From: Acidobacteriota bacterium
GTDB lineage: Bacteria > Acidobacteriota > Vicinamibacteria > Vicinamibacterales > UBA8438
Assembly (NCBI GenBank): GCA_011523845.1
Contig: WTFV01000076.1
Location: 999-64,998, forward strand
Reading direction: 5' to 3'
Length of the DNA stretch: 64,000 nt
Shown here: piece by piece, positions 4,356 to 62,053 of the stretch
Numbering within the stretch: the stretch's first letter is position 1
Layout: each line of letters begins with the position of its first letter
Program-made: the position numbers and the translations under genes
The notes under the pieces: generated by a model
Databases searched by the model: none
The model's input: only the letters and a program-made list of their open reading frames with translations
What the model was told of the DNA's origin: nothing

Positions 4356-5897
4356 ATGGACCGGATCGACGAGGCCTTGGCGGCGGCTGAGATGGCGGCA
4401 GCTGAGACGGCGTGCAGTGCCGCCGAGTACTACGGGGATCCGTCGGAGTACCCCGACTGTCCGATGCCGGGCTGGTTGAAGCGCCGGCTCGCCCTGCCGT
4501 CCGACGATCGCTTGATCCCGGAGGCTGTCTCGGCGATGCAGGCGGCTGCAGCGGGGTACCGGATCGTTCCCACGATGGAAGTCGTCGCTCGCGGGCTTGC
4601 CGACGGCGGTGATGCCGGGGACGTGTTGATGGCGCTTTCGTACCTGCTTGCTCCGCGTTCGCCGTACCAGGCGATGGCGGGCTGGGCCGCTGGCGCGTAC
4701 ACGCCTCGGCAGGCGGTCGCCAGGGCCGTGGAGCATGGGTTCAAGGTTCGTGGTCTCCGGGACCAGTTGCGCTGCGTCAGGGCGCGCGGGTGCGCTTTCG
4801 CGGAGGCGTCGGCGCTGTGGGATATTGATCCCGGGGACCTGATTGTGAAGCTGCCGGAGCCGGCCCGGACGTTGTACTTGCGCGAACGCGATTTGATCGA
4901 CGCCTGGACTGCCGCTGCCGGTCTTGCGGCTGGGCAAGTCGCCGTGGGTGGCGGCAGCGTGCTGGCGGCACGCTGGGGCCATCGGCGTTCTCTTGATGTG
5001 GATGTTGTAGTTCAGGGGACGACTGCTTACCGGCAGATGCTGCGGGCGCAGCAGGCGTTGGACGACCTTGCTCGACGCCGTGGGGCAGAGGTGTTGTGGG
5101 TGCCGCGCCTTCATGCGGTTCGCATAACGTGGCCTACTGCAGACTCGGCCATGTCCGACAAGCTCGAGTTCTTCGCCGAGGCGGAGACTCCGCCCGGCTA
5201 CTCCGAGCGAATACAGAAGCTTGAGGGTCGTCCGACGAGGACGCTCGGCACCCGGCAGATTCTCTGGGGCAAGCTCGATCGTTGCCTGCGCGTTCTTGCG
5301 CCCAAGGACATTTTCGATATTCGGGATGCAGGTCGTCGCGATGCGGATGAGCTTGTGGCAGCCGTCAACGCTTTCTCCGATTTCGCCATGCGCCAGCTTG
5401 CGCAGGCGTTTCGCTCGGACGCGGCGGCGATTGGGAGGAAGATCGACGAAGTCCTCCCGACCGTTGCGGTACTTGCTCCCGGTGATGGGCGCATCGTTGC
5501 GCAGGAGGCTGGCGACGCCATTGATCGTTGTCTCTACCGGGAGGTGACCGTCGGTGTCGACAACGGCCTGGTTCGGGTCGACCGCGTCACCGGTGTTGGG
5601 CCGCTCCCGCCTCTGCGGTGGCTGCCCGCCGAGACGGCGGTCGAGGCGGAGCGGACCGGCGTCGCTCGGTACCTTGACCGGAATGCCATATCGGTGGTGC
5701 TTGAGGACGCCGCTTCTGTTGCCGGCCGCTCCGCCGGTGCCGCGAAGGTCTGGACCGGGCGCGTCGGCGGGACGGTCGAGTGGAAGCGTCCGCCCGAAGC
5801 GTTGATGATGATGGCGGCCGAGTATGCCGGGCCTGCCGCCTCGCGCCGCGGCGCCGAGGCGGACGCGATCGCGCCGGATCGGGATCCTGGCGCCTGA
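4356..5897 (+). CDS. AbiEii/DUF1814-like nucleotidyltransferase fused to a ~190-aa N-terminal domain
   Basis: VGGGSVLAARWGHRRSLDVDVVV matches the G-G-x-A-L...R-x-S-x-D-[IV]-D nucleotidyltransferase motif. The protein is collinear with the 53367..54422 protein (LGGATALAADWRHRHSFDIDILI; ...DIFDIRDAGRRD vs ...DLFDICHAARIR). Start chosen at ATG 4356, preceded by GGAGG; the track ORF begins at TTG 4338. Confidence 0.65.
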   Translation: MDRIDEALAAAEMAAAETACSAAEYYGDPSEYPDCPMPGWLKRRLALPSDDRLIPEAVSAMQAAAAGYRIVPTMEVVARGLADGGDAGDVLMALSYLLAPRSPYQAMAGWAAGAYTPRQAVARAVEHGFKVRGLRDQLRCVRARGCAFAEASALWDIDPGDLIVKLPEPARTLYLRERDLIDAWTAAAGLAAGQVAVGGGSVLAARWGHRRSLDVDVVVQGTTAYRQMLRAQQALDDLARRRGAEVLWVPRLHAVRITWPTADSAMSDKLEFFAEAETPPGYSERIQKLEGRPTRTLGTRQILWGKLDRCLRVLAPKDIFDIRDAGRRDADELVAAVNAFSDFAMRQLAQAFRSDAAAIGRKIDEVLPTVAVLAPGDGRIVAQEAGDAIDRCLYREVTVGVDNGLVRVDRVTGVGPLPPLRWLPAETAVEAERTGVARYLDRNAISVVLEDAASVAGRSAGAAKVWTGRVGGTVEWKRPPEALMMMAAEYAGPAASRRGAEADAIAPDRDPGA

Positions 5898-10830: not shown

Positions 10831-10906
10831 GCCGAGCGCCGAGCGCCGAGCGCCGAGCGCCGAGCGCCGAGCGCCGAGCGCCGAGCGCCGAGCGCCGAGC
10901 GCCGAC
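10831..10906. repeat. Perfect heptanucleotide tandem repeat (GCCGAGC) x10 plus a partial 11th unit
   Basis: Counted directly in the sequence. It lies in the gap between the TonB receptor start (10466, minus) and the + strand ORFs beginning near 11013. Confidence 0.97.
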
Positions 10907-11012
10907 TCTGCCCGGTTAACTGCTCTTTCTGACCCTTCCGTTTGTTCTATCCCGCCTCGCGGCCGGTCCCGCCTCCGCGTAGACGGTTCCGCCGTACTCC
11001 CGCTTCTGTCCG

Positions 11013-42540: not shown

Positions 42541-43827
42541 TCACTCCTCGAACTGGTCGGCCGGCTTCCAGCGGGGCGGGTTCTCGCCCAGCAACGGGAG
42601 CACCCGCTGCTCGACGTTCGTGCCGCTCGAGCAGAGGCGGACGGCGTGCTCGCGCATTTTCCGCATCATCACGCCGGCCGGGTCGCCGCTGCCCCGGTTC
42701 TTCTCGTCGAGCCACACGAACCCCCAGGGGCGGAGCTGCGCTTCTCTCGCGGTGGCCGCGATCCAGGCGGCCGCCTGCGCCTTGCGCGTGGCGTGGGTGT
42801 CGCGCACGGCGCTCATCCGGGCGGCTATGCCGCGGCCGCTGGCGGCCAGCCGCTCCAGGACCGTCCGGCCGTACTCGTGCACGCGCGCGGCGCGTTCCTC
42901 GTCGAGGATCGCGGTCAGGTCGCCGATTCCGCCGCTCAGTACCGCCTTGAGCACGTGGGTCTCGCGCGCGTAGGCGTCGCGGCCGCGGTGCAGCGTGACG
43001 TACTGCTCGCCCTTGAGCTTGATGCGGTGGCCGGAGGGGAACGAGACCACGTAGCCTTCGTGGTCGGCGTCGAGCCGCCGGGCGGCGGCGACGAAGCGCT
43101 CGCGCTCGTCCCTCGTGCGGGTGCTCGCGACGAAGGTCTCGACCAGGCGCAGGCGCCCGGAGCGCGCGCCCGTGTCCGCGCAGGCGGCCAGGAAGGTCTC
43201 CGCGAGCTGGTCGTGGGACCAGTAGTGGCCGTCGTCGATGCGGCGGACGGCGAGCAGTGTGAGACTCGCATGCTCGTGCCGGACGACGATGCGGTTGTCG
43301 GGCGAGCAGAACTCGAAGAGCGGCGTGCACGGTGCGCCGTCCTGGTCGCAGATCGTCTGCTGCAGGATGGCGGTCATCTGCTTCCGTTCGCCGTCGTCGA
43401 GGTCGCGTTCGAGGAAGTCGACCGCGAGCTGCGCGATGTCGGTCGGCCCGCTCCGTGTGCACCAGGCGATCTCGCCGCTGGCGCGCCGCGCCGGGTAGAC
43501 GAGCGAGCCGTCGATCTTGGCGGTGATCTCGCAGCCGCCGTCCCAGGGGCAGGCGGAGACCGCGGCGCCGGGCTCCTGCCAGTTGAAGAACTTGTGGAAC
43601 GGGCGGGCGGCGACCTCGCCTCCCTCGTTGACGATGAGGCCGCGCATCTCGGAGAAGGGGAACCGGAACTGCTCCGGGTCGCCGGTCACGTAGGCGTAGT
43701 TGAGCGCGCGCAGCCCGCCTCTATGGCGGCAGGAGAAGGTGTCGGCCTCTGCGGCCAGGCGGCAGAGCGTCTCGCCGTCGGGCAGCGGCCGGGGGGCGTA
43801 AGGGATGGCGTCGGCATTCGGGTCCAC
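42541..43827 (-). CDS. ATP-dependent RNA ligase, T4 Rnl1 (RnlA)-like
   Basis: MRGLIVNEGGEVAARPFHKFFNWQE parallels T4 CRGIMFE...ASRPMEKFFNLNE. AKIDGSLV is the motif I lysine. FEFCSPDNRIVV is motif III-like. HEGYVVSF is motif IV. HRIKLKGEQYVTLH is motif V. Confidence 0.8.
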   Translation of the reverse strand: MDPNADAIPYAPRPLPDGETLCRLAAEADTFSCRHRGGLRALNYAYVTGDPEQFRFPFSEMRGLIVNEGGEVAARPFHKFFNWQEPGAAVSACPWDGGCEITAKIDGSLVYPARRASGEIAWCTRSGPTDIAQLAVDFLERDLDDGERKQMTAILQQTICDQDGAPCTPLFEFCSPDNRIVVRHEHASLTLLAVRRIDDGHYWSHDQLAETFLAACADTGARSGRLRLVETFVASTRTRDERERFVAAARRLDADHEGYVVSFPSGHRIKLKGEQYVTLHRGRDAYARETHVLKAVLSGGIGDLTAILDEERAARVHEYGRTVLERLAASGRGIAARMSAVRDTHATRKAQAAAWIAATAREAQLRPWGFVWLDEKNRGSGDPAGVMMRKMREHAVRLCSSGTNVEQRVLPLLGENPPRWKPADQFEE

Positions 43828-44291
43828 GTGGCGGGCTCCGGAGTGGTGGCGCAGGGAAGGCGCGCGGCCTTCGGGTCCGCGTCGCGGACGCGCCGGGGTG
43901 GGGCGGAGGGTTGTGCCGCGCTGATCGCGCGGGTTGCGGTGCGGGCCGGGTGCCGTACGGGCGTTTATCGGGCCTGCCCCGGATACGGATGTGCGTGGCG
44001 CGGACCCTGTACGCTGTCTCTGCTCCCGCTGGTCGGGCGGCCCGCTATCCCTCCGGGTCGTGCGGGAGTCGCGGCCGGGGCGCTTTCCTGTTCCCGTTCC
44101 GGCCGCTCTTTCCTTCGTCGCCGGTCTCGGCGGTGTGGTCCCGGACGTGCTCGAGGGCGGCGGTTTCGCACGGGCCGGACCGAAGGCCGAGGATCGCGGC
44201 CTGCAGGGTGCGGGGCCGAGGTTGACGGCAGGGCGGCGTGCGCCGTTCGGGATACCGGGTGTGTCAGCGCGTTGTCAGCGGGCGCCGTTCG

Positions 44292-45009: not shown

Positions 45010-45531
45010 TCAGCGGGCCGGGGCGCGTTTCGCTGCGTGCAGCTGGAGTGGCGTTCGCAGGCCGCTCTGCGGCAGGTAGAGCGGGTGGGGCGGGTGCCCC
45101 TCCCTGGTCGCGGCTCCGAGCCGGTAGACGTCGCCGGCGGCGGTCAGCAGCTCCAGCACGCGCCTCGCGCGGGCCTCGCCTGCCTTGCGGGACGGCTTTC
45201 CCCATGCGGCGATGATCAGGTCGGCGCCGCGCGCGGCTTCGGCTATGACGTGGTCGTTGGCGGCGCCGACCGGGTCGTCGAAGTCCTTCAGCCCCTTCGG
45301 GTCGGTGGTCCTGGCCGCGTAGAGGTTGACCATAGTCAGGCGGGTGGCGTCTTCCCTGCGGGCGAAGCCGATCACTCGGCGGCTGGTGGGGTCGTCGCGC
45401 TCGGCGTCGGCCGTCGACGGGTTGAGCCCGCAGACGAGGACGTGCTTTTTCTTCGGGGCGAGCAGGTCGCCCAGGTCGCGCTTCAGCGTCCAGCGGTAGG
45501 TTGCTCTGGTCGAGCCATCCTGGCCTGGCAT
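45010..45531 (-). CDS. DUF1643-like protein
   Basis: ...TYRWTLKRDL...VLVCGLNPSTADAERDDPTSRRVIGFAR...MVNLYAARTTDP...DPVGAANDHVI...ADLIIAAWG...HPPHPLYL follows the DUF1643 pattern as I recall it. An alternative start is at 45582. Confidence 0.75.
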   Translation of the reverse strand: MPGQDGSTRATYRWTLKRDLGDLLAPKKKHVLVCGLNPSTADAERDDPTSRRVIGFARREDATRLTMVNLYAARTTDPKGLKDFDDPVGAANDHVIAEAARGADLIIAAWGKPSRKAGEARARRVLELLTAAGDVYRLGAATREGHPPHPLYLPQSGLRTPLQLHAAKRAPAR

Positions 45532-45617
45532 CTTCGTCGTGTGGCGTCGTTGTGGGCGGCGGACCGTCGCGTTCTTCAGCATCGTCCGGCTCCTTCGCTG
45601 CTGTTGCGTCGCAGCGG

Positions 45618-46040
45618 CTAGGACGGCCGCGTCCGCCCGCTCTCCCAGGCGGCCAGGGTCTTCGGCCCGGCCGCGTAGGGGAAGCTCTGTCCGCGGTAGT
45701 GCTCCATGTCGCCGTACCCGAGGCAGGCGGCCTCGCCAGCGGTGCCGGCGGGCATGAACACTGCCGCGCGCGGGTACTCCAGGTCGCGCCCGATGGCCGC
45801 CGTCGCAACCCCGGCTGCCCACGGCATGCGCGCTGCCTCGGCGATCTCGAGCACGACGGCGTTGCTCTTCGTGATCGCGACGTCGCTGCCTGCCTCGTTC
45901 AGCTTGTCGCACACGGTTTCCACCGCGGCGCGCAGTTCGTCGGGTGCCGGCGGCGGTTCGTCGTCCCGCAGTTCGATCTGCAGAACGTGGCAGCTGGCGT
46001 GATCGGTACCGAGTGTTCCTTCGCGCATCGTCGCTTGCAT
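45618..46040 (-). CDS. Hypothetical protein (140 aa)
   Basis: MQATMREGTLGTDHASCHVLQIELRDDEPPP... This is the tail of track ORF 45618..46199. Good GC3. Confidence 0.6.
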   Translation of the reverse strand: MQATMREGTLGTDHASCHVLQIELRDDEPPPAPDELRAAVETVCDKLNEAGSDVAITKSNAVVLEIAEAARMPWAAGVATAAIGRDLEYPRAAVFMPAGTAGEAACLGYGDMEHYRGQSFPYAAGPKTLAAWESGRTRPS

Positions 46041-46382
46041 GCGGTTCGCTCCCTTCGTTGTCCGCGTTTGCGTTGTTCTCTCGCGGCTGTGGCGGGGCGC
46101 GCGGCCCCGCCCGTTGTGTTCCGACGCTCTCCGCTTTGCTCCCGCCGTTGCGGCGTTCGGCGGCGTTCCGCCGCCGTTCCCTGCGCGTGCAGGGAACACG
46201 AGGCGCGGGTCGGGGGGCCGGCGTGGCCCATCGGTTCATCTCCGTGGTTGGGGAACCTCGCGAACGCGGCCGCCGTCGTGATCGCGCGTCGTCAGTCTCC
46301 TTCCCGTTCGCTGGGGGCGGTGTTGCCGGGCCGTGTTCCTCGACCGCGCGTTTTCCGCGATCGGGCCGTCCGGGTCCTCTGT

Positions 46383-46828
46383 GCTGCGCGTGGCGCATGT
46401 CCGTCAGCGTCCTGACGAGTTCCAGTGTTGTGTTCCGCTCGTCAGGTGTTCACTACGTGCGTTTGCAGTGCGGGCACTGCTCCTCGGCGTTGCTGCGGCC
46501 CGGCCGGAGGTCGATCTCGAGCATTCCTCCGCAGCCGTGCCTGGGGCACTCGAGCTTGATCCCTCGAATCTCGTCGGTCGCGCTTCAGCGTCCAGCGGTA
46601 GGTTGCTCTGGTCGAGCCATCCTGGCCTGGCATCTTCGTCGTTGTGGCGTCGTGCGTGGAATGCTCTCGGGCTGCGTTCCGGTCTTGCTGCTCGGCTTCT
46701 GCGATCCTGGCGAGTCCCTTCGACAGGATCACGAGCGGCAGCCGCACGTACGGGCAGTCGGCGCGCGCCCGCTTGCGGTCGATTTCCTCCTGAAGCGTCT
46801 TGACGGCGGCGCGTTCGTCTCCTGTCAT
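46383..46828 (-). pseudogene. Mosaic decayed duplicate: a copy of the 53-aa gene, a 78-nt copy of the DUF1643 5' end, and a copy of the zinc-ribbon gene with in-frame stops
   Basis: 46383..46575 aligns with 48121..48313, with TGG TGG changed to TAG TGA. 46576..46653 aligns with 45474..45550. 46655..46828 encodes MTGDERAAVKTLQEEIDRKRARADCPYVRLPLVILSKGLARIAEA, matching MTPNERRAVEALEADIDRERARADCPCVRALLVILSKGLANIAEA. Confidence 0.65.
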
Positions 46829-46913: not shown

Positions 46914-47930
46914 TCATTGCTGCGTCTCGCCTGTGAGCGGTAGCGCCCGCTCGTGCGTGCGGTGCAGCCGCAGCCTTGCGGGCTGGTAGCGTGCCGCTTC
47001 CCATATCTCCCACGGTACCGTGCGGTCGTAGCCGCCGATGACCCAGCGTGCGAAGCCGATCAGTTCCGGGGTGCGCCGGAAGGGCATCGGGTAGGGAAGG
47101 GCTCCGAGCGATCGGATCTGGCGTCTGCGCCAGTCGCGCTCCTGGTGCGTCTCCTGCTTCCAGTACCCGATCAGCATGTAAACGAACAGGTGGTGTGGCC
47201 GCACGCCGGCTTCGATCAGTGCGCCGACGCCGCGGAAGAACCGCTCGGCGTCCTTCGCGTTGTCGAATGCGGTGTAGAGCCGCCGGTGCCGCATCCCGTC
47301 GTCGCGGTAGTCGACGCCGGCTATCGCGGCGGCCGATTCGCGGTCGACCAGCCGCGCGTTGATTCCCTGGTTGAAGGAGACACGGTAGCGCCCTGTGCGC
47401 AGCTCTTCGATTCGTTCGCGCCAGCGAGGCTGACCGAGGAAGTCGTTGTCGAGCAGGAGCACGTGCCGCGGCCATTTTCCGCCGCGCCAGATGTCGGCGA
47501 TGGTCGCCGTCTCGGAGACCGCGCCCTCGGCCTTGGGCACGATGCAGAACGGGCACCGCAGCCGGCATCCCCGCTGGCTGTAGCCGATTGACGACGACCA
47601 GCGCGGGTAGTCGCTGTAGTCGATTGGTCCGTTGGGCTCGATTCCCGCGTCGGCGAGCGTTGTGGTCGTCGACCATCCGGTTCCGCCCAGTACTGCCTGC
47701 GGGTAGGCCTTCCGGACGAGCTCGGCCAGCGGCCGCGTGCGCGTGAAGATTGCGCTTGCATAGACACGCTCGGGCGCCTCCTCGCCGAGCTGGCGTTGGA
47801 TGGCTTGCGCGTTGCCCGCGCGGCGCAGTGTGACCCGGTCGCCCGCCGTCCGGCGCGCGGCGGCTATGCGCATCAGTGCGAGGTTGGGAATCTTCCCGTC
47901 GAGCTGGAGCAACAGCGTCGTTCCGGGCAT
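46914..47930 (-). CDS. Radical SAM enzyme with an N-terminal Rossmann-like (B12-binding-like) segment
   Basis: 338 aa from MPGTTLLLQLDGKIPNLALMRIAAA... It contains GCRLRCPFCIVP, a CxxxCxxC cluster motif. Confidence 0.8.
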   Translation of the reverse strand: MPGTTLLLQLDGKIPNLALMRIAAARRTAGDRVTLRRAGNAQAIQRQLGEEAPERVYASAIFTRTRPLAELVRKAYPQAVLGGTGWSTTTTLADAGIEPNGPIDYSDYPRWSSSIGYSQRGCRLRCPFCIVPKAEGAVSETATIADIWRGGKWPRHVLLLDNDFLGQPRWRERIEELRTGRYRVSFNQGINARLVDRESAAAIAGVDYRDDGMRHRRLYTAFDNAKDAERFFRGVGALIEAGVRPHHLFVYMLIGYWKQETHQERDWRRRQIRSLGALPYPMPFRRTPELIGFARWVIGGYDRTVPWEIWEAARYQPARLRLHRTHERALPLTGETQQ

Positions 47931-48055
47931 CGGTGTCTTGCTCTTCTGCTTCTCCGTGTTAGCTGTACGGTGTGTTCTGCCGGTGGCCGGCCGCCGGCGG
48001 CGGTTTCTTCGAGAGGATGACCAGACTGCGCCCGCATGCAGGGGGTGTGGCAGCG

Positions 48056-48352
48056 CTATTCCACGCTCCCTTCCGGCTCGGGGGGGATCAGTCTGACGAT
48101 CGGGGCGTCCGGGTCGGTGTGCTGCGCGTGCCGCATGTCCGTCAGCGTCCTGACGAGTTCCAGCGTCGTGGTCCACTCGTCAGGTGTCCACCACGTGCGT
48201 TTGCAGCGCGGGTACTGCTCCTCGGCGTTGCTTCGGCCCGGCCGGGGGTCGATCTCGAGCATTCCTCCGCAGCCGTGCCTGGGGCACTCGAGCTCGATGC
48301 CTCGAATCTCGTCGACGGTTGCGATCTGGCGCGTCTCGATGATCATCGTCAT
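48056..48352 (-). CDS. Small Cys-containing hypothetical protein (98 aa)
   Basis: MTMIIETRQIATVDEIRGIELECPRHGCGGMLEIDPRPG...YPRCKRTWWTPDEW... This is the intact paralog of the decayed copy at 46383..46575. Confidence 0.65.
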   Translation of the reverse strand: MTMIIETRQIATVDEIRGIELECPRHGCGGMLEIDPRPGRSNAEEQYPRCKRTWWTPDEWTTTLELVRTLTDMRHAQHTDPDAPIVRLIPPEPEGSVE

Positions 48353-48543: not shown

Positions 48544-50163
48544 CTACGCCGCCGGCGTCGGTGCGTGCTGTGCGGCGGCTCGTTCCTGCCGGTTCTCGGC
48601 GTCGATGCGGCCGAGACCGGCGTCCTCGTGGTTGGCGAAGCGGATCGCCTCGGCGATGGCCTCGTGGCCGGCCTGGTCGCGGATGAGCCGGTGCATCCGC
48701 TGGCAGATGCGGCGGTACGAGGGGTGTCCGGCGGGCTGGGTGCGCAGCTCGATGACGTGCATCGCCTCGCGCGCGTTCATGCGCATGGTGAAGCGGATGC
48801 GGCAGGCCATCGGGACTGCGTACTGCGCGGTGTCGGCGCCGTAGCGCTGCCGGAGGTGCTCGTACAGGCGGCGGGACTCGTCGATGACGCGGTTCCATGC
48901 GGGGCGCAGCCCGGGGATGTCGTCGAGCGCGTCGGGCTCCTCGGTTCCGTGCCGGGTCGTCAGCCGCTGCCAGTCGATGGTCAGCATGCGGTGTCGCTGC
49001 AGGTCCCGGAAGGCGCCGTAGTCGGCGGTGACGTCGAAGGTGTAGTCGGCGTGCTCGAAGGCGCGGCCGGGCCGGTGGCGCCGGTTGCCGCGCTCGCCGA
49101 CGATGTTGCGGATCGTGTGCAACCGTTCGTCCTGCGGCATCTGCCGCACGAGCAGGCGCACGCCGCTCAGCGTGTGCTCGGTCTGTAGATACAGCGCTGC
49201 GGCGAGCACGGCGGTCTCGCCGTCGCCTGTCCAGTCGATAAGGCGGACGTCGTTGCCGGCGTTGCCGGAACGGTTCCAGTCTTCGTCGGGGAGCGTGCAG
49301 GCCGCGTCGGCGGCGGCCGCGTGCTGGCCGCGCAGGTAGTCGCGCCACGCGCCGCCGCGGTCGGCGCGGTGCACCCGCTGGATGAACGCCGGGATCACCT
49401 GCTCGAGCTCGGCGAACATGGCTGCGGCCATTGCCCGCGCCTCGGCCAGCGGGTGCGCGCCGAGGCGGAGCAGCAGCGCCTCGAAGGCCTGTCCGGAGCC
49501 GTGGATGCCGAGGTTGCTGCGCGTGGCGGCGGGCAGCAGGCCGCGCAGCGTGTCGAGCCCGCGGGAGCGGACCGCCCGCTTCCAGGCGCTCTCGTCGTCG
49601 CCGGCGCGACGCGGGTGCGCGCGGCGGAAGTGCGCGTCGGCGCCGCCGAGGAAGCGGGCGTAGGTCTCGAAGGCGTTGTCGAGCGTTTCGCGGTAGCGGC
49701 GGCGGTCCGCGAGGTCGGCGATCTCGGCCGGGGTGACGTACTTCCAGCGGCCCCCGGGGCGCTCGGTGCAGGGCACGTAGCGGGTGGACTGCTCCAGGTA
49801 GGACATGAGCCGCCCGCGCTCGAGGACCTTGGTGAGCACGTTCGACACGCCCTCGCAGGCGACGTGCGCGCTGCCGAGCTGGGCGACCGAGTCGTCTCCG
49901 TACTGCCCGAGCACGCGGTCGTAGAGCGCGGCGGCGCGGCCGGTGGCCTCGTTTGCGCCGTCCGTGCCGGAGGTCGGCGGCACGTCGGCGTCGAACTCGT
50001 CGAGGTACAGCCGGCGCAGCGGCTTCGCGGAGCGGGAGTAGCGGGCGAACAGGGCGCCCTTGACCGTTTCGGGGAGGTTGCGCAGCGCGAAGCAGGGCCG
50101 GTCCGGGTTGGTGAAGCGCGGTTCCAGCCGGGCGCGTTCGGCGTCGGTGAACTCCGGTGTCAT
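48544..50163 (-). CDS. thyX: FAD-dependent thymidylate synthase, long two-domain ThyX form
   Basis: 539 aa. The N-terminal half has ...GALFARYSRS... The C-terminal half has ...YGAFRDLQRHRMLT... (RHR motif) and ...MNAREAMHVIELRT... Confidence 0.85.
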   Translation of the reverse strand: MTPEFTDAERARLEPRFTNPDRPCFALRNLPETVKGALFARYSRSAKPLRRLYLDEFDADVPPTSGTDGANEATGRAAALYDRVLGQYGDDSVAQLGSAHVACEGVSNVLTKVLERGRLMSYLEQSTRYVPCTERPGGRWKYVTPAEIADLADRRRYRETLDNAFETYARFLGGADAHFRRAHPRRAGDDESAWKRAVRSRGLDTLRGLLPAATRSNLGIHGSGQAFEALLLRLGAHPLAEARAMAAAMFAELEQVIPAFIQRVHRADRGGAWRDYLRGQHAAAADAACTLPDEDWNRSGNAGNDVRLIDWTGDGETAVLAAALYLQTEHTLSGVRLLVRQMPQDERLHTIRNIVGERGNRRHRPGRAFEHADYTFDVTADYGAFRDLQRHRMLTIDWQRLTTRHGTEEPDALDDIPGLRPAWNRVIDESRRLYEHLRQRYGADTAQYAVPMACRIRFTMRMNAREAMHVIELRTQPAGHPSYRRICQRMHRLIRDQAGHEAIAEAIRFANHEDAGLGRIDAENRQERAAAQHAPTPAA

Positions 50164-52350: not shown

Positions 52351-52809
52351 TTACGGCGTCCGGGAGCGGTACCAGTAGGTGGCAGGTCCGAGCCGGACGG
52401 GGCGGTAGCTTGCCCGCAGGTCCTCGGCGGCCTCTTCGAGGTTGATGTGGCGGTAGGGCCACTGCCTGCAGCGGTCTTCGCCGACGATGCCGCGCGCGAC
52501 GGCGGCGCAGTGCCCCTGGAACCTGGACTCGTGAACCAGCTCGGTGGCCGGGTCGAGCAGTCCGAGCCCGGCGCGCTGGCGCGTGTCGGCGGCGAGGTAG
52601 TCGCTGTCCGCCTTGACCTGGGCGATGGTCATGGTCTTTCTGTCGGGCGGCGCCTTCCGCCAGGCGGCGATCGCGGCGGCGACGTCGCTGACGGTGGCGA
52701 GGAAGCCGCGGACGGCGAACATCCAGAGGGCGAGCAGCGCGATCCCGGCCGCGGCCCAGAGCACCGGGTGGTCGGAGGCGTCGAGCAGCGGGCGGACCAG
52801 GATCGGCAT
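52351..52809 (-). CDS. Membrane-anchored hypothetical protein
   Basis: N-terminal TM span VLWAAAGIALLALWMFAVRGFL, then a soluble domain. Confidence 0.6.
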   Translation of the reverse strand: MPILVRPLLDASDHPVLWAAAGIALLALWMFAVRGFLATVSDVAAAIAAWRKAPPDRKTMTIAQVKADSDYLAADTRQRAGLGLLDPATELVHESRFQGHCAAVARGIVGEDRCRQWPYRHINLEEAAEDLRASYRPVRLGPATYWYRSRTP

Positions 52810-52915: not shown

Positions 52916-53164
52916 TTACCTGAACAGGTCGTTCGCCCACCTGCGGACCCGTTCGGGACCGAAACAGGCGATTGCCGTCGGCACCATCATGGCGACGACG
53001 ACTGCTCCGACCAGATCGGGCCCCCACGGTTCGGCGCCGGTGACCCAGGAGCTCACGGTGCCGATGACGATGAACATGAGGGTGAAGTGGATCGCGTGCC
53101 GCGCGAGGCAGCGCAGACTCGGCTCGAACATCGGCTGCTCGCTGCTTCGGGTGCTGTCGGTCAT
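52916..53164 (-). CDS. Small two-TM membrane protein
   Basis: ...HFTLMFIVIGTVSSWV...LVGAVVVAMMVPTAIACF... Confidence 0.6.
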   Translation of the reverse strand: MTDSTRSSEQPMFEPSLRCLARHAIHFTLMFIVIGTVSSWVTGAEPWGPDLVGAVVVAMMVPTAIACFGPERVRRWANDLFR

Positions 53165-53366
53165 GGTTCAATCCTCGTTGCCGATGGTCTCGTACTGGTG
53201 CGCAGTGACGACGGTTTCGAACAGGATAGTGCAGTCATCCTCGTCGGCGGGAGCGCTGGAGGAGGGGGGCGTGCGGCAGGCTGTGACGGGTTCCCGCAGG
53301 GGGGCGTGCGGTCGCGAGTGACGTTGTCTTGCTTGGGGAATGCTGGCTTGACTGCACCGTGGTTTT

Positions 53367-54422
53367 TCACCGTCCTCGAGAGGGATTCTTGTTGCGGTCT
53401 TGCCCGTTTGCGGCGCTTGCTGCAGGTGGCGGTGGTGTTGGCGGGTCGGGTGGTTCGAAGAGTCCACGTGTCGGGTCGTCGGGTCGGGCTATATGCGCAA
53501 TGGTTTGTTGGTTGCTCTGTGTCATTGCTTGGCGCGCATCCCGGATCACGTCGCGTGCGCTGATGTTGTGGCATCCGAGGTAGCGGGCGATTCCGAGGCC
53601 GTGGAGGTCTCGTTCGATCTCATTACTTGTCGAGTGATACTCGTTGGTCCGCAACCCGTTGGTTCTTGTTCGTATCGTGATTCGGTCGTGGGATGCCTGG
53701 ATGAGCACTTCTGCGTAGCGGTGCGTCTCCGTCGTGCGTGCGGCCCGTTCGACCAGCTGTTTCGGGTCGATCCAGTTCTCTGCCGATATTCCGGACAGTT
53801 TCGTCTGGGCCTCCTCCTCCTCGATTTTCGCACGGCTATTGTGCCAGAACTCTCTGATCCGGTTGAGTTCAGGTTCCGTGAGCGCATTCAGTGCTTGGTG
53901 CATGCCGGCGTCGCTTCTGATGCGTGCTGCGTGGCAGATGTCGAAGAGGTCCCGTGCTGCAACGTGGTGGTCGATGGCTCGTCGAAACTTTCCGCTGAAG
54001 ATCTGTGCGTTGCTCAGCCTGAGAGTGGTTTGTCGCGCCACTTCAATCGGCTCTTCGTGCCCGGGGAGTTGGCGTCCGCTGCTGAAGATGTCGACCTTGC
54101 CGTTCTTGCCATAGGCGATGCTGAGTTTCTGGTCGGGGGCGTCTACTTGCTGTCGCTTCGTTGCTTGTATGAGCTTGCTCAGGCGCTGGTGTCCTTTGCC
54201 GTGTAGTGCCGCCATGCTGAGGCCCGGTGCGATGAGGATGTCGATGTCGAAGCTGTGCCGGTGACGCCAGTCGGCGGCCAGCGCCGTTGCTCCGCCCAGA
54301 TACCATCTGTCGTGTTCCAGTGTCTTGCACTCTTCGAGCAGGGCGTTGACCAACGTAGTGGCGTGCTGCCAGATCCTGCTGGCGGGTTCGAGAAGCTCTA
54401 CGTGTCTGGTCTTCTTCGTCAT
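53367..54422 (-). CDS. AbiEii/DUF1814-like nucleotidyltransferase (toxin-like)
   Basis: MTKKTRHVELLEP...WYLGGATALAADWRHRHSFDIDILI... ATGA overlap with the upstream gene. GC is visibly lower than in the surroundings. Confidence 0.72.
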   Translation of the reverse strand: MTKKTRHVELLEPASRIWQHATTLVNALLEECKTLEHDRWYLGGATALAADWRHRHSFDIDILIAPGLSMAALHGKGHQRLSKLIQATKRQQVDAPDQKLSIAYGKNGKVDIFSSGRQLPGHEEPIEVARQTTLRLSNAQIFSGKFRRAIDHHVAARDLFDICHAARIRSDAGMHQALNALTEPELNRIREFWHNSRAKIEEEEAQTKLSGISAENWIDPKQLVERAARTTETHRYAEVLIQASHDRITIRTRTNGLRTNEYHSTSNEIERDLHGLGIARYLGCHNISARDVIRDARQAMTQSNQQTIAHIARPDDPTRGLFEPPDPPTPPPPAASAANGQDRNKNPSRGR

Positions 54423-54931
54423 TGAGCGCCTGGCGGCTGCGCGAAGTTGTTGAGGTACTGGCTTCGGGGGCCGGTCTCCCAGCCGTGTGCGTACATCGCG
54501 GCGACGAGCTCGCGCATCGTGTATACGCCGTCGGCCCATGCTTCCAGCAGCTCGTGCGGTGGAGATTCGCAGAGCCATGTCGTGAATACGGCTCGCTGGC
54601 GGGGGGTGGGGTCTATCGCTCGCACGGCTTCGTAGAGCTCTTCTGCCGTCGGTGGCCGGAGCCACCCGCAGCAGACCTGGGCGAACCTGCCTGCGACGAT
54701 CGGTGAGTTCCGAGGCCCAGCTTCTCTGGCCTTCTCGTACCAGGGTCCGCGGAGGCGTTTCTTCCTCTCTTCGGGCATCGGTTCGTCAGTAAAGCGTTCC
54801 GGTGGCAGGACGGTGATGTCTGCGCGTTTTATTCCGCTGCGCTCGAACTCGTAGTCGTACCCAGGGTCCCACGGGTCGGTGCACGGAACGGGTCCCTCGT
54901 CGAAGCGCGACGTCGGGGTTGGGTTCGTCAT
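54419..54931 (-). CDS. Hypothetical protein (170 aa), upstream partner of the AbiEii-like gene
   Basis: It is translationally coupled. Its C-terminal half (CCGWLRPPTAEELYEAV...AWADGVYTMRELVAAMYAHGWE) resembles the N-terminal extension of the fused protein at 4356..5897 (MPGWLKRRLALPSDD...GWAAGAYTPRQAVARAVEHGFK). Confidence 0.68.
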   Translation of the reverse strand: MTNPTPTSRFDEGPVPCTDPWDPGYDYEFERSGIKRADITVLPPERFTDEPMPEERKKRLRGPWYEKAREAGPRNSPIVAGRFAQVCCGWLRPPTAEELYEAVRAIDPTPRQRAVFTTWLCESPPHELLEAWADGVYTMRELVAAMYAHGWETGPRSQYLNNFAQPPGAQ

Positions 54932-55183
54932 GGTTCGGGGTAGGGAATCGGCTTCGATTCGATTCTACTATGATCCTCTTCGTTCATCGGGGCGCTGGGG
55001 AAGCGGGTCTTTCGATTGCGTTGGCGGTTCCGCTTCGTTCATGTGACGAGCGACGGCGCGCGCGTTCCCAGCGGCCAGGCGGCGGGTCGTGGGGGGCCGG
55101 CTTCATGCCGGCCGTGATCCGTGCCTTCCAACCCGCGCGCGCCGTCTCCCGTGGCGCCAGCGTGCGCCAACATTGCGCCGTGT

Positions 55184-56731
55184 TCACCGCCGGCCGGTCG
55201 CGGCCTGCTCTTCGTTCTTCGTTCTTGTGGCGCCGGGGTCCCGGCCCGTCTCGGCCAGCAGGCGGTTGCGCAGCACTATGCGCAGCACCGCGAGCACGTC
55301 CCTCTGCTCGGTTCCGCGCTCGTAGGCGTTCTCGGCCACGCGGTCGCGCATGTGGATCTCGAGGCACTGCTCGATGTAGCTGCCGCACAGGGCGTCGACC
55401 TTGTACGGCGGCAGGATTGCTGCCCGGTCTTTCAGGCTGGGCGCGACGTCGGCAGCCCACTCGTCGGCCCGGACGTCGGCTGCGAGCTTGCGTCCGTGGT
55501 CGTTGAGCTGGAGGGGGCTGCGGGCCACCGTCAGTACCGGCCGGGGCTGCGGCCACCGGGTGGCGCGCGCGGTGTTTCCCGCGGGCAGGTCCGCGCTCGT
55601 CCAGTGGTGGACGCGCAGGTCGTCCAGCCATCCGGCTTCGTCGTCGCGCTCGGCGACGAGGAAGCGGCCGAGGTCGCCCGGGTCCTTCGCCTGGTGGTAG
55701 CGCAGGTAGATCCGTTCGCGGTCGACGGCCAGGATCTCGATCTTCCCGGTCGCGTGCGACATGACGAAGCGCGTCCGCCGCGCGAGCCCCGACCCGCGCG
55801 AGAGCGCCTGCTGGAAGATTTTCCAGCCCTCCACGATGGGGATTTCGTAGGGCGCGTTCCCTTCTGTGGGCCGTCCCTGGAACAGGTAGTAGGGCGGGCA
55901 GCCGGCGTACGACAGCCGGCTCCAGAGCTCGGCCAGGACCTCGGGCCGGTCGTTGACGCCGCGTATCAGCGGGCACTGGTTGACGGTCGTTACTCCTGCG
56001 GCGTGGTACGCCTCGAGTTCGGCCAGCGCCTCGGCGGTCAGCTCGCGCGGGTGGTCGAAGTGCGCCATCAGGTAGATGCGCTGGCGGTCTTGCGGGTGGT
56101 CCCGGAGCACTTCCTGCAGTTCGGGGTCGCGGCGCAGCCGCCACGGGTCGAAGGCGGGCATCTTCGAGCCGATGCGCACGATGCGCACGTGCTCGATGCC
56201 GGCGAGCCCTTCGAGGGTCTCCGCGATCCGCCGCGTGCTCATCAGGAGCGGGTCGCCCCCGGTCAGCAGGACGTTGCTGATCTCGGGGTGCTTGCGGATG
56301 TAGTCCAGCCCGGCTGAGACGTCGTTGTTCGCCTCGTCGTTGTCGTTCATGAACAGGCGCTTGCGGAAGCAGTAGCGGCAGTAGGCGCCGCAGACCTCGT
56401 TGCACAGCAGCAGGGCCGTGTCGGCGTACTTGTGCTGGACGCCCCGCGCGACCGTGTTCGCAGCCTCGTCGCTGGCGTCGAGTTCACCGTAGTCTTCGAG
56501 CTCCTCGCCGCGCGGGATGACCAGCTGGCGGATCGGGTCGTCGGGGTCCGACCAGTCGATCAGATCGAGGTAGTAGTCGTTGAGGCGGAAGGCGTACCTG
56601 TCGGCGACCGGCGCCAGCGCCCGCCGCTCGGCAGGGCTGAGGCCGTCGATCTTGTCGATGTTCGTGATGTAGCGCAGGCGGCGCGGCGCGTCCTCGGTTC
56701 CGCCGGCCGCCGTGTCGGTGGTCGTCGTCAT
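55184..56731 (-). CDS. KamA-family (lysine 2,3-aminomutase-like) radical SAM enzyme with a ~120-aa C-terminal extension
   Basis: ...LLLCNEVCGAYCRYCFRKR... (CxxxCxxC), LLTGGDPL, RIGSKMP, and ...GCPPYYLFQGRPTEG... 515 aa from ATG 56731. Confidence 0.88.
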   Translation of the reverse strand: MTTTTDTAAGGTEDAPRRLRYITNIDKIDGLSPAERRALAPVADRYAFRLNDYYLDLIDWSDPDDPIRQLVIPRGEELEDYGELDASDEAANTVARGVQHKYADTALLLCNEVCGAYCRYCFRKRLFMNDNDEANNDVSAGLDYIRKHPEISNVLLTGGDPLLMSTRRIAETLEGLAGIEHVRIVRIGSKMPAFDPWRLRRDPELQEVLRDHPQDRQRIYLMAHFDHPRELTAEALAELEAYHAAGVTTVNQCPLIRGVNDRPEVLAELWSRLSYAGCPPYYLFQGRPTEGNAPYEIPIVEGWKIFQQALSRGSGLARRTRFVMSHATGKIEILAVDRERIYLRYHQAKDPGDLGRFLVAERDDEAGWLDDLRVHHWTSADLPAGNTARATRWPQPRPVLTVARSPLQLNDHGRKLAADVRADEWAADVAPSLKDRAAILPPYKVDALCGSYIEQCLEIHMRDRVAENAYERGTEQRDVLAVLRIVLRNRLLAETGRDPGATRTKNEEQAATGRR

Positions 56732-58295: not shown

Positions 58296-58748
58296 TCAGC
58301 GGCCCGCGAGCGTCTGCAGGACGCTGACGACGTTGCGGCGCGCCGCGTCGAGCGCGAGCAGGTGGCGGACCGGGTGGTCTCTCGACGCCTCCGGCTCGCA
58401 GCGGGCGAGCACGTGGTCGAGCGCGGTGCTCATCGTCTCGGTCAGGATGCGGATGGCCTCGATCGGGGTGAGGGCCTGCACCCGCCACTGCGGCCTGCCG
58501 TTGTCGGCCTCGTCGCAGCCGTTGGTCCAGTAGACCGCGGCGGCGGCGTCTTCGGGCAGGTGGAACTCGTCGATCCGCTCGACGGGCAGCCACAGCAGGT
58601 GGCCGGTGATGGGGTCGCCGAGCTCGGCCAGCAGGTGGCCCTCGTCGCTCAGCAGCTCGCACAGCTGCTCGTACTCCGGGGTGTCCGGGTCGACGGTGCG
58701 TCCGGCGCCGGTGTGGGGATGGTCGTTCAGGTCCAGCTGGTGGATCAT
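58296..58748 (-). CDS. Hypothetical protein (150 aa)
   Basis: MIHQLDLNDHPHTGAGRTVDPDTPEYEQLCELLSDEGHLLAELGDP... ATGA overlap with the giant upstream gene. Confidence 0.65.
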   Translation of the reverse strand: MIHQLDLNDHPHTGAGRTVDPDTPEYEQLCELLSDEGHLLAELGDPITGHLLWLPVERIDEFHLPEDAAAAVYWTNGCDEADNGRPQWRVQALTPIEAIRILTETMSTALDHVLARCEPEASRDHPVRHLLALDAARRNVVSVLQTLAGR

Positions 58749-61700
58749 CGTGTCGCCGCCGCGTCGTACGTATTGTCGAGGAGCCGGTTCAGGTCGGCGC
58801 TCTGCTTCCACGCGCCCGCGGCCGGGGACGGCGGGCGCGGCGGGTTGTCGGGGACGGCGCCGACGTCGGAGTCTGCACTGCGCCGGCCGATGGCCCGCAG
58901 GTCCGGGCGCTCGTCCTCGGGGGTGACCGTCCGCCCGTGGCGGTCGACCTGCTCGCACGGGACCCGGCGCTCCCTGGCCATCTCGAGCACGTCGTCGCCG
59001 CCGCGGTCCCCGGCCTTCGCGAAGGAGATCACCAGGTGCGGCTTGCGCTCGTCGAGCATGTCGGCGTCGCGGCACCGGATCGCCTCGCGGCGGTAGGCCT
59101 GCGGCCCCTTCTCGTGCCACTCCTTCGCGGTCTCGAGCTCGTCGAGCGCCTCGCGGCGGGCGGGGTCCCCGGCGTCTTCGGCCGCGTGCTCCGGACCGTG
59201 GTCCGGCGCCGCGGCCGGCGGCGGGTACCGCCGGTCGATCGCGGCGCGCTCGGCGTCGTAGTTCTTCGCCTTCGCCGCGTCCGCCTCGTATTGCGCCTTC
59301 GCGCCGTCCCAGTCGGTCCTGCAGACGTCGCAGGGCACGCCGGCCTCGCGCGCCCAGTTGGCCGCTGTCGCCTGCGCCCCCCGGCTGTCGCCGGTGACGA
59401 TGCGCATCGGGGCGCCGGCGATGCGCCGGCGCAGCTCGTCGAGCTTGCCGTAGACATCGGCGGGCCGGTCGTGCTTCCAGGAGCCGGTGACCAGAACGCG
59501 CACCTCGCGTGTCGGCTCGGCTGCCGGCGGTGGCGGCGGCGCGGGCAGCGGTGGCTGGACCGGTGCGCGGAAGGTCCCGTCGGGCTCGGTGATCTCGTGC
59601 CGGACGCTGCGGTTGTGCTCGTCGAGCTTCTGCCGCATGTCGGCGGGCATCGGCCGGTCCGGGGCGTTGCGCCGCTCGGCGCGGGCGTGCTCGGCGCTGG
59701 CGCGCAGCGCGGCGATGTTCTCGTCCATTCCTGCGAGCTGCTCGTCGCTGGCGCCGGCCTCGGCGATCTTCCCGCGGTAGGCCTCGAGCCGGTCGGCGGC
59801 GACGTCGTCGGGATGCTGCGGCTGGTCGGGACCGGGCCGCTCGACGGGCTCGCGCTCTTCCGGCGCCGGTGCGTGGTCCCAGTCGTCGTCGCCGGGGTCG
59901 AAGACGTGCGTGTCGACGGGGGCGCCGGTCTCGCGGCCGGGTGTTTGCCCCTGTTGCTGCGCCTGCGACTGGGCCCGGGTCTCGGCGCGCTCGCGCTCGC
60001 GTTCGATGCCGGCGGCCCAGCTCGCGGCCTGCGAGAGCACGTCGCCGTGGCAGGCTTGCGGGGCGCAGTGGCAGGCCAGCTGCTTGCCGTCGAGCTTGGC
60101 GAGCCTGTCGAGGTCGATCTTGCCGGAGTCGATGGCGTCGGCCAGGTAGCTGCGGTACTGTTCGAGGACCTCGTGCCGCTCGGCCGGGTCGTTGCGGTCG
60201 CGGAGCGGGAACGGGTTGCCCCAGTCGGTCTTGCGGTCGATGCGCACCGCGGCGCCGGAGCGCACCGCGTGGAAGGCGCTCCGCTCGCGCAGGTTCAGGG
60301 TCGGGGGCGCCTCGGCGGGCGCATGTCCCGCCTGCGCCCACGCGGCGTCGGCGGCCTTCCGGCCGAGGCGCCGGCTCGCCGCCGCGGCCGTCCGGCCCTC
60401 GACGGGCACCACCCACGCCGGGTTCGGGTCGGCCTGCTCGCGGCTCCGGCGGGCGTGTTGCAGGTCGGCCAGCTCTCCGGTGGGGGTGTGGTTGACGCCC
60501 CGCGCGTCGACCGACTCGACGGGGACGCCGGCCCGTCTCGCGGTGGCGGCCAGCCGCTCGACGGACTGCTCGCCGCGCGGGAAGGTGACGGCTGCGTGCG
60601 GCTTCTGCTCGGCGATCATCCGCAGGCGGGTCAGGTGCGCCTCGTCGGGGTCGGCGGTGCGGTACTGGTCGCAGTGCACGCCGCGGCGCCTCGCCCACGA
60701 GGCGGCGACCGTGGACAGGTCCTCGCCGCCGGGCTGCATCGCGACGGCGATGCGCAGCGCCGCCGGGTGGGCCCTGGCGAGCACCTCGTCGAGCTTGGCG
60801 TGGACCAGGCGCTGCTCGGCGCCGGCCTTGACGCCGCCGATGACGATGCGCGCCTCGCCGTGGGTGTGCGGGTCGTTGTTGGGCAGCTTGGCGATGCGGC
60901 CGATGCCCGGCGCCTCGACGGGGCCGGCGGGCCGTCCGCGTGCGGCCGACCGGCGGGCGATGGCGGCGACGTCGTGGAGCTGGCCGGTATCGGTGAGCGT
61001 GGTGCGCGAGACCGGGTCGATCTCCTCGACGGCGACCTTCGCCTTCGCGGCGATGTCCATCATCATGCGGGTGCCGCGCGACTCGCCCTGCGGGAAGGCG
61101 ACGACCAGCTGCGGCTGTCCCTCGGTCAGCATCCGCTCGTTGCGGCGGTAGCCGGCGGAGCGGCCGTAGCGGTCCCACTCGGCGGGGTACTCGTCGCAGG
61201 GGACGCCGTGGCGCTTCGCCCAGTCGGCGGCGAGCCTGTCGGCGCCGCGCGCCGCTCCGGAGACCACCCGCATCGGGATGCCGCCGAGGCGCTGGCGGAC
61301 CTCGTCCAGCTTGGCGTCGACGAGCCCGCGGTCGGTGAAGTCCCGGCTTCCGCATACCAGCACGCGCGCCTCGACGTCCGGCGTCGGCGCGGCGGGGTTC
61401 TGTTCGGGCATCGGGGTCTCTCTCGATGAGGCGTCCGGTCTCGGCGTCGTGCCGGCCGGCTCCGGCCGCGCGTGCGGCGGCAGGCCGAGCGTGGCGGCCC
61501 ACTTGTCGACGTCGTGGACCGTCCCGAGCTGTCCGGCGCGGTCGAGTCCCACGAGCATCGCGGCGGCGCGGGCCTGGCAGGCGACCGATTGTTCCGGGCG
61601 GTGGAACTGGTCGCTGAAGGCGGTGTAGCCGTGTAGACTGCCCGTGGGGTGGGCGGCTGCGGCGGCCTTGATCCAAAGGCGGTCGTAGAAGGCGCTGCCC

Positions 61701-62053
61701 GAGGCGGCGGGCCAGAACGTGCCGCCGTGCTGGAACCCGGTCAGCGGCCCCGCGGCGCGGCGCCCGCGGTCGCGGCGCTTGGCGTCGAACCCGTTGGGCA
61801 GCGGCGAGCCGTCGGGCCCGCGGTCCCCGTAGCACTTGGCGGCCTGGTAGACGCTTTCGACCGGCAGGTTGCGGTCGTCGTCGGTGTCCGCGGCGCGCAG
61901 GCGCATGGCGCTCAGGCCGCGGCCGAGCGGTTCGTCGCTGCGGCTGCTGATCTCAAGGACCTGCAGGCCAGCGGGAGCGCCGGCCGCATCGTGATGCTCG
62001 GCCACGAACGGCGGGCGGTCGAGCGGGGTGAACCAGGTCGTGGGTCTCGCCAT
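58745..62053 (-). CDS. 1102-aa multidomain protein: unassigned N-terminal domain, DUF2493/SLOG, degenerate DUF2493-like, DUF4326, linker, then a third DUF2493/SLOG-like domain
   Basis: Domain 1 is RVLVCGSRDFTDRGLV...MRVVSGAARGADRLAADWAKRHGVPCDEYPAEWDRYGRSAGYRRNERML...LVVAFPQGESRGTRMM. The DUF4326 region is IDRKTDWGNPFPL...EQYRSYL...LDGKQLACHCAPQACHGDVL. The last domain is VRVLVTGSWKHD...MRIVTGDSRGAQATAANWAREAGVPCD... Confidence 0.82.
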   Translation of the reverse strand: MARPTTWFTPLDRPPFVAEHHDAAGAPAGLQVLEISSRSDEPLGRGLSAMRLRAADTDDDRNLPVESVYQAAKCYGDRGPDGSPLPNGFDAKRRDRGRRAAGPLTGFQHGGTFWPAASGSAFYDRLWIKAAAAAHPTGSLHGYTAFSDQFHRPEQSVACQARAAAMLVGLDRAGQLGTVHDVDKWAATLGLPPHARPEPAGTTPRPDASSRETPMPEQNPAAPTPDVEARVLVCGSRDFTDRGLVDAKLDEVRQRLGGIPMRVVSGAARGADRLAADWAKRHGVPCDEYPAEWDRYGRSAGYRRNERMLTEGQPQLVVAFPQGESRGTRMMMDIAAKAKVAVEEIDPVSRTTLTDTGQLHDVAAIARRSAARGRPAGPVEAPGIGRIAKLPNNDPHTHGEARIVIGGVKAGAEQRLVHAKLDEVLARAHPAALRIAVAMQPGGEDLSTVAASWARRRGVHCDQYRTADPDEAHLTRLRMIAEQKPHAAVTFPRGEQSVERLAATARRAGVPVESVDARGVNHTPTGELADLQHARRSREQADPNPAWVVPVEGRTAAAASRRLGRKAADAAWAQAGHAPAEAPPTLNLRERSAFHAVRSGAAVRIDRKTDWGNPFPLRDRNDPAERHEVLEQYRSYLADAIDSGKIDLDRLAKLDGKQLACHCAPQACHGDVLSQAASWAAGIERERERAETRAQSQAQQQGQTPGRETGAPVDTHVFDPGDDDWDHAPAPEEREPVERPGPDQPQHPDDVAADRLEAYRGKIAEAGASDEQLAGMDENIAALRASAEHARAERRNAPDRPMPADMRQKLDEHNRSVRHEITEPDGTFRAPVQPPLPAPPPPPAAEPTREVRVLVTGSWKHDRPADVYGKLDELRRRIAGAPMRIVTGDSRGAQATAANWAREAGVPCDVCRTDWDGAKAQYEADAAKAKNYDAERAAIDRRYPPPAAAPDHGPEHAAEDAGDPARREALDELETAKEWHEKGPQAYRREAIRCRDADMLDERKPHLVISFAKAGDRGGDDVLEMARERRVPCEQVDRHGRTVTPEDERPDLRAIGRRSADSDVGAVPDNPPRPPSPAAGAWKQSADLNRLLDNTYDAAATR

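Follow-up and report, generated by a model that had tools for sequence, protein, structure and literature searches.

What does a small helical protein do when it is encoded directly upstream of a nucleotidyltransferase (NTase) at one locus and forms the N-terminal part of the same polypeptide at another? The question is raised by a 64,000-nucleotide stretch of contig WTFV01000076.1 (positions 999 to 64,998; assembly GCA_011523845.1, Acidobacteriota, Vicinamibacterales), referred to here as the window. It carries a two-gene cassette at positions 53367-54931 and a fused paralogue of both genes at 4356..5897. By analogy with known systems, and with moderate confidence, the cassette can be read as a mobile two-gene module of toxin-antitoxin (TA) type resembling AbiE and MenAT, in which a new antitoxin family would bind the toxin directly and possibly act through induced auto-phosphorylation. 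The features on which this reading turns are the following:

54419..54931, minus strand: partner gene, 170 aa; predicted all-helical protein of an uncurated family, presumed antitoxin or regulator
53367..54422, minus strand: NTase gene, 351 aa; nucleotidyltransferase of the DUF1814 or AbiEii-MenT type, presumed toxin
54419..54422, minus strand: ATGA overlap of the partner stop and the NTase start, read from the sequence
4356..5897, plus strand: fused paralogue, 513 aa; assigned by sequence comparison and an AF2 model
4356-4787 (residues ~1-144): partner-like N-domain of the fused protein
4788-4838 (residues 145-161): linker of the fused protein, modelled with low confidence
4839-5765 (residues ~162-470): DUF1814 NTase domain of the fused protein, with GGGS...R-R-S-L-D-V-D

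Collinearity of the cassette with the fused paralogue

An initial annotation of the window had placed two open reading frames (ORFs) in the cassette, joined by an ATGA overlap, and both the frames and the overlap are confirmed by reading the sequence. The shared stop and start implies translational coupling, and in relatives the partner and NTase genes likewise abut or share a few bases. The partner gene lies upstream, which is the bicistronic order of AbiE and MenAT operons. A 432-aa ORF on the same strand (53367..54665) was rejected as a gene; it arises when the NTase frame is extended backwards through the partner gene.

Is the gene at 4356..5897 a fusion of the two cassette proteins, as had been proposed? 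Its ATG at 4356 is the correct start, because homologues begin MDRIDEAL. In BLASTP comparisons, the NTase aligns with residues 164-459 of the fused protein (25% identity, E 3e-12) and the 170-aa partner with residues 29-138 (26% identity, E 4e-5). Family alignments were built for all three proteins (A1, A2 for the fusion family, and A3). With hhalign, the partner family aligns with the fusion N-domain over 94 columns (95.8% probability, E 8e-9) and the NTase family with the C-domain over 291 columns (99.9%, E 1e-31), while the crossed controls score 0.4% and 0.1%. A diverse partner alignment of 61 sequences (A5) extends the match to the N-domain to 121 columns (95.4%, E 2e-8), against 0.1% for the reversed sequence and 1.7% for the C-domain. 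With hhalign taken in, the partner match spans residues 28-131/152 of the fused protein. The same register between partner and N-domain was given independently by MAFFT, and among the six-frame ORFs of the window the N-domain profile matches the partner ORF only (E 2e-7). At the junction, the end of the partner runs into a linker of ~15 residues and then into NTase residue ~7, as expected from read-through of the ATGA overlap. Judged from these alignments, 4356..5897 does join the partner and NTase modules in a true collinear fusion, and the Rosetta-stone link between the two cassette proteins is real and statistically solid. One detail of the initial annotation had to be corrected. The first of its motif pairings is out of register, since PMPGWLKRRL pairs with PMPEERKKRL (partner residues 51-60) and not with CCGWLRPP, a partner segment that aligns with AAGYRIVP of the fused protein; the other pairings are correct.

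The AlphaFold (AF2) model of the fused protein has a predicted local distance difference test score (pLDDT) of 73, with values of 80-97 over much of the NTase domain (~160-440) and dips to 68-75. Foldseek returns JHP933 (4ok0 and 4o8s) and MenT4 (6y56) as the top matches of this model (probability 1.00, E 5e-4 to 2e-3). The best fold match to the fused NTase domain is JHP933 of Helicobacter pylori (Foldseek E 5e-4, target TM score 0.5), a DUF1814-type NTase encoded in a genomic plasticity zone. Unlike the NTases described here, JHP933 is a stand-alone protein of ~230 aa that lacks their common C-terminal sub-domain and has no known partner of this family. The fused protein of the window falls below Pfam reporting, several members of its family carry PF08843, and the equivalents of the catalytic motifs in the family are GGGS, D214, D216, E271, K and D318/D321. 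Full-length members are all at least 57% identical, and the family of 4356..5897 is the sole conserved fused architecture among the matches listed.

Several other candidates for fusions were discarded. Public protein sets hold mis-called "long NTases" (P0070, P0080 and P0083; 361-498 aa) that mimic fusions and have the same origin as the 432-aa ORF of the window; alignment identified them as out-of-frame read-throughs of the partner gene. Two further proteins that carry both parts, P0147 and P0217, are chimeras produced by deletion or frameshift. Conversely, P0044 (342 aa) belongs to the fusion family and only looks "split": its gene was called too short, and tblastn finds the N-domain in frame upstream.

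The nucleotidyltransferase and its uncurated partner

The NTase had been described as AbiEii-like, and the family search agrees. It matches PF08843 (AbiEii, DUF1814) with 32.2 bits (gathering cut-off 22.5, E 1.4e-7), and a precomputed PF08843 match is present in all of its close homologues. All of motifs I-IV (hG[G/S], DhD, K...R and +DxxD), as defined by Dy et al. (PMC3985639), can be located in the protein. In an alignment of 30 sequences, G43-G44, D59, D61, D111, K145/R147/R148 and R157-D158-x-x-D161 are invariant or at least 90% conserved. The initial annotation had named a lack of catalytic residues, combined with an absence of toxicity, as an observation that would count against its proposal; the residues are present and conserved in the 30 homologues, and from them the enzyme is predicted to be catalytically intact. 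The C-terminal tail is proline-rich and variable.

Within the second motif, which reads R55-H-S57-F-D59-I-D61 (codons 54258-54240), R55, S57, D59 and D61 are invariant in 30/30 sequences, and S57 stands two residues before the first catalytic aspartate. The equivalent positions are S78 of MenT3 (before D80), S67 of MenT4 and T65 of AbiEii (before D67/D69) (PMC7450476; bioRxiv 10.64898/2026.01.19.700257). This serine or threonine is the phospho-acceptor in antitoxin-induced auto-phosphorylation (PMC11375011).

The bi-lobed DUF1814 fold is seen in the model of the fused paralogue, to which the split NTase is tied by the 99.9% hhalign alignment; its relation to JHP933 and MenT4 is drawn by fold comparison only, through that model. 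A sequence search of the PDB with the NTase and partner profiles returned nothing meaningful. In NCBIfam neither the split NTase nor the partner has a match, and the fused protein has only a sub-threshold chance match. The NTase is a bona fide member of the AbiEii/DUF1814 family, in a divergent subfamily.

The partner has a conserved core of ~125 residues (~40-165). In the window protein the core reads LPPERF...CCGW..PT..ELY.A.RA..PT.RQRAVF..W..E...ELL.AWA.G.YT.RELV.AM..HG...LNNFA, and the family consensus is LLPPExFxD...TG..S..V..R..SCAGW..PT..EFY.AVRA..PT.RQRAIL..W..EA...E.L.AWAE.AYT.RELV.ALHR.G....LN. None of its 20 close relatives is annotated. A profile search of 1.84 billion representative proteins gave 436 matches, and the 144 new representatives among the matches listed were sorted by architecture. 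The partner domain stands alone in 112 of the 144, which are clusters at 50% identity and have a median length of 167 aa; 27 match the NTase part of the profile alone, 2 carry both parts and are the chimeras P0147 and P0217 mentioned above, and 3 match neither profile, at least 2 of these being N-terminal fragments of the fusion family.

No curated family in Pfam, NCBIfam, PADLOC or PHROGs covers the partner domain in the 61 family members scanned, and neither these members nor the window partner match the Pfam family of AbiEi (COG5340). The AlphaFold model of the partner is all-helical (pLDDT 82, predicted TM score 0.76); Foldseek finds no fold match for it in the PDB (best E 3.5, TM < 0.2) and none in BFVD. 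As the initial annotation had supposed, the partner is therefore not a winged-helix protein of the AbiEi type, as far as sequence and predicted fold can tell. The model is also unlike the MenA structures in the PDB at the sensitivity of Foldseek. Charge separates the two cassette proteins of the window, with an isoelectric point (pI) of 5.2 for the acidic partner and 9.3 for the basic NTase, and likewise the two parts of the fusion, an acidic partner part and a basic NTase part with a pI of 8.6.

Distribution, mobility and neighbourhood

Does the pair persist outside the window? Three sets of loci were collected: those around close relatives of the partner; three GTDB genomes, all Vicinamibacterales (Acidobacteriota), which were the sole returns from the narrower family alignment; and nine metagenome contigs carrying a partner subfamily of 30-35% identity. 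Contigs MKWU, LXNI and LXNJ come from Mediterranean sponge metagenomes (PMC5099237, PMC5649159). Partner and NTase profiles were run against the six-frame ORFs of all loci. Of the 20 loci that extend far enough downstream, 19 have an NTase gene of this subfamily immediately behind the partner gene and in the same orientation, and the pairing holds also for the 30-35%-identical partners from sponge metagenomes. The positive loci fall within L001-L010, L014-L017 and L019-L024; L018 and L023 end too early downstream to be judged, and no NTase was found downstream of the partner in L025. Tandem double pairs of partner and NTase occur in L001, L002 and L004 (8005-9477 in each), in L016 (6708-8453) and in L019 (939-4798). 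The second tandem pair is highly divergent, and its small protein is a partner homologue (profile match, 98.7% probability).

Both genes are under purifying selection, because substitutions in both concentrate at third codon positions; between the window partner and that of L014, differences number 17/16/59 by codon position.

The cassette had been noted to lie in a patch of lower guanine-cytosine (GC) content, and this is borne out by sliding windows of 1565 bp across the 64 kb. The patch is as follows:

53000..55000: low-GC patch holding the cassette, GC 0.575-0.64 against ~0.72 in the flanks

The cassette itself (GC 0.613) ranks within the 3 lowest of 625 windows (mean 0.698, standard deviation 0.027), and its GC content at third codon positions is 0.66, against 0.8-0.93 in neighbouring genes. 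Relatives that are ~70% identical occur in other neighbourhoods, one with Phage_VG64 and an integrase and another with AAA_25, and the cassette is found in at least 3 unrelated neighbourhoods. As its relatives occupy different surroundings, the cassette behaves as a self-contained mobile unit.

The fused gene had been taken as simply chromosomal, a description that its relatives do not support. In the loci examined (L011, L012, L026, L013 and L027) they adjoin a relaxase and a DDE transposase, or an intein-bearing class II ribonucleotide reductase, or lie in a TrbL/TrbI/CagX block with IS66, and the gene is multi-copy: a 7.28-Mb contig carries three paralogues (at least 90% identity), and a contig of 7.59 Mb carries two. 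Divergent from the fused gene in the window is a 350-aa fragment of a TonB-dependent receptor (3179-4231, minus strand) that retains the signal peptide, the CarboxypepD_reg domains and the plug and has no barrel; a full-length receptor paralogue of ~1200 aa lies 3 kb away (7347-10946, minus strand). The two together suggest that the DNA near the fused gene has been rearranged locally.

Up to 36 kb, the gene content of the window looks chromosomal (AcrB, a TonB-dependent receptor, UvrD, a hybrid histidine kinase, a class II ribonucleotide reductase). An island of genes on the minus strand, of conflict type or related to nucleotide metabolism, begins at ~37 kb (37000-64000) and encloses the cassette:

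42541-44274, minus strand: Rnl1-type RNA ligase
45010-46449, minus strand: DUF1643 protein
46914-48179 and 55184-56731, minus strand: two radical-SAM proteins
48544-50163, minus strand: ThyX fusion, 539 aa
51552-52328, minus strand: metallophosphoesterase
58745-62053, minus strand: 1102-aa protein with NADAR-DarT1, three YAcAr/SLOG domains and DUF4326

The island may be a DNA- or NAD-modification or defence island, and a neighbourhood so rich in conflict genes is only suggestive of a defence role for the cassette. Two genes downstream of the NTase, a 152-aa protein (52351-52809, minus strand) matches phrog_25535, a phage family of unassigned function (E 2.7e-6); this is the sole phage-family match in the immediate neighbourhood.

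Function of the pair

How might the two proteins act together? In the TA-type reading, the NTase would arrest growth by adding nucleotides to the 3' ends of transfer RNA (tRNA), by analogy with MenT and AbiEii, and the ~125-residue helical domain of the partner would stand in for the AbiEi, MenA or COG4861 antitoxins. The partner would most likely neutralise or regulate the NTase through direct binding; contact is expected because both modules form one collinear polypeptide at 4356..5897. Neutralisation could proceed through partner-induced auto-phosphorylation of S57, in the manner of a type VII system, which is possible for the NTase because the R-x-S-x-D-x-D signature is invariant. On this view, the fused paralogue would be a version of the pair that inhibits itself within one chain and travels on conjugative elements.

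The initial annotation had labelled the pair a variant type IV system. In type IV systems the antitoxin does not interact with the toxin. That label is not borne out, as a fusion that has been conserved points to direct contact between the two proteins. AbiE and MenAT, too, are nowadays assigned to type VII, in which the antitoxin binds the toxin and induces its auto-phosphorylation (PMC11375011; bioRxiv 10.64898/2026.01.19.700257).

The resemblance to AbiE (AbiEi/AbiEii of Lactococcus and Streptococcus agalactiae) extends to the DUF1814/PF08843 toxin with motifs I-IV, the serine or threonine two residues before the DxD, the small partner gene upstream and overlapping (order abiEi-abiEii) and the association with mobile elements. 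Differently from AbiE, the partner is an unrelated all-helical domain of no curated family instead of a COG5340 winged helix with a C-terminal domain, the NTase belongs to a divergent subfamily with a weak match to the AbiEii models of PADLOC, and a natural fused form exists. MenAT of Mycobacterium tuberculosis (MenT1-4) likewise combines DUF1814 NTases with upstream partners (order menA-menT) that are not necessarily related to one another, MenA1 being a 7.4-kDa helical protein, and MenT4 is among the best structural matches of the fused model. Direct binding and induced auto-phosphorylation of the active-site serine or threonine, as in MenAT, is proposed for the cassette by analogy. Neither sequence nor Foldseek relates the partner to the MenA structures in the PDB, and the hosts are Vicinamibacterales and other sponge-associated bacteria. 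For the fused form a different comparison is instructive. CapRelSJ46 and EzeT are reportedly single-chain TA proteins. Like them, the fused paralogue unites toxin and neutralising domains in one polypeptide, implying autoinhibition in cis that a trigger would release; the toxin fold and the domain order differ, and here split and fused forms coexist in one genome segment.

A number of observations weigh against the TA-type reading. A covalently fused antitoxin is incompatible with differential stability, so that classical TA logic is not transferable to the fused form. When the window is compared with L014, L015, L016 and L001, taking both genes from the same pair of genomes each time, amino-acid identity is 84% for the partner against 69% for the NTase, or 70% against 51%; the partner is conserved more than the NTase, the reverse of the usual TA pattern. 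The phospho-acceptor serine is usual in the fusion family but is replaced by proline in P0040 and alanine in P0041, and P0029 has lost both the serine and the first aspartate (motif C-R-G-V-H); these three are possibly decaying or differently regulated copies. Partner charge varies across the family (core pI 4.7-10.6), and given this inconsistency charge was no longer used to argue for DNA binding or nucleic-acid mimicry. Upstream of the partner gene, neither a sigma-70-like promoter nor a convincing inverted repeat or operator was found, nor any conservation among homologous upstream regions. The AbiEii models of PADLOC, its sole matches, hit the NTase only weakly, and defence-finding pipelines would probably miss it. 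Finally, IMG/VR viral contigs hold no relatives (two family alignments searched), PLSDB plasmids gave no tblastn match for three partner proteins, and INPHARED phages none for P0001. On these null results, and that for the partner family in PHROGs, a phage or plasmid origin of the cassette was rejected. With phage, viral-contig and plasmid relatives lacking in these searches, a role in phage defence or plasmid addiction is conjectural.

It is possible, though unlikely, that the pair is a two-subunit enzyme and no TA system at all, the partner being an obligatory activating, targeting or sensing subunit and the fusion hard-wiring the heterodimer. The fusion is indeed stable, conserved and multi-copy, the partner is the better conserved of the two proteins and has no similarity to any known antitoxin, and some DUF1814 proteins are not toxins paired with a linked antitoxin (PMC3985639). 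The pair nevertheless resembles AbiE and MenAT modules in gene order, overlap, size and mobility, the four characterised DUF1814 proteins considered here that have a partner encoded upstream (AbiEii, MenT1, MenT3 and MenT4) are toxins, and the cassette acts as a small, self-contained, mobile low-GC unit.

Alternatively, the helical domain may mark a new and widespread class of NTase regulators that serve as sensors instead of labile antidotes: the partner would keep its DUF1814 enzyme switched off, either in trans or in cis, and free it once a specific trigger had bound, for instance a phage protein or one related to conjugation. The fused genes would then be trigger-released single-chain effectors like CapRel, and the higher conservation of the partner would reflect sensing. 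We regard this, too, as doubtful.

A role of the partner chiefly as a DNA-binding autoregulator, linked to the NTase by regulation and not by physical contact, is less probable still. Residues ~110-148 could be read as a degenerate three-helix helix-turn-helix (HTH), as the predicted helices 110-122, 125-133 and 139-148 (over the segments PT.RQRAVF..W, ELLEAWA and T.RELV.A.HR) are spaced like those of sigma-70 region 4 or LuxR, and the known DUF1814 partners COG5340 and COG4861 are predicted regulators (PMC3985639). Against this, none of the 61 members scanned carries a Pfam HTH family, Foldseek matches no HTH protein, the window partner is acidic (pI 5.2), conserved inverted repeats were not found upstream, and a pure repressor would hardly be expected to stay covalently fused to the enzyme, as is seen across more than 20 sequences. 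That the similarity between partner and fusion N-terminus is fortuitous, the latter being an unrelated extension and the likeness a compositional effect of 70% GC, is very improbable: pairwise identity is just 26% and the broad partner HMM alone misses 1e-3 on some fused members, but two independent profile-profile tests give 95-96% (E ~1e-8, 94-121 columns) with reversed and crossed controls at 0.1-1.7%, the MAFFT register agrees, the N-domain profile finds the partner ORF alone in the window, and the order of parts at the junction is exactly that of the split genes.

Under the TA-type reading, what does the locus add? DUF1814 toxins with unrelated upstream partners (COG5340, COG4861 and MenA1) were already known. 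The partner family itself is new: sizeable, conserved, undescribed and with no fold match. New, too, are the split and fused forms side by side and their distribution in sponge-associated and Acidobacteriota genomes. For research on TA and defence systems the pair is a useful lead that lends itself to experiment, if one that would not surprise a specialist, and TA and defence finders would currently overlook such modules in sponge-symbiont and Acidobacteriota genomes.

DUF1814 toxins such as AbiEii and MenT are in current focus, as their unrelated antitoxins all seem to induce auto-phosphorylation. A third unrelated partner family, with 112 clusters at 50% identity among the matches listed, would be an independent test of the generality of this mechanism. 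The presence of split and fused forms in one genome offers a natural experiment on whether proximity and binding suffice for neutralisation, and the fused form also bears on how a tethered "antitoxin" could release its toxin.

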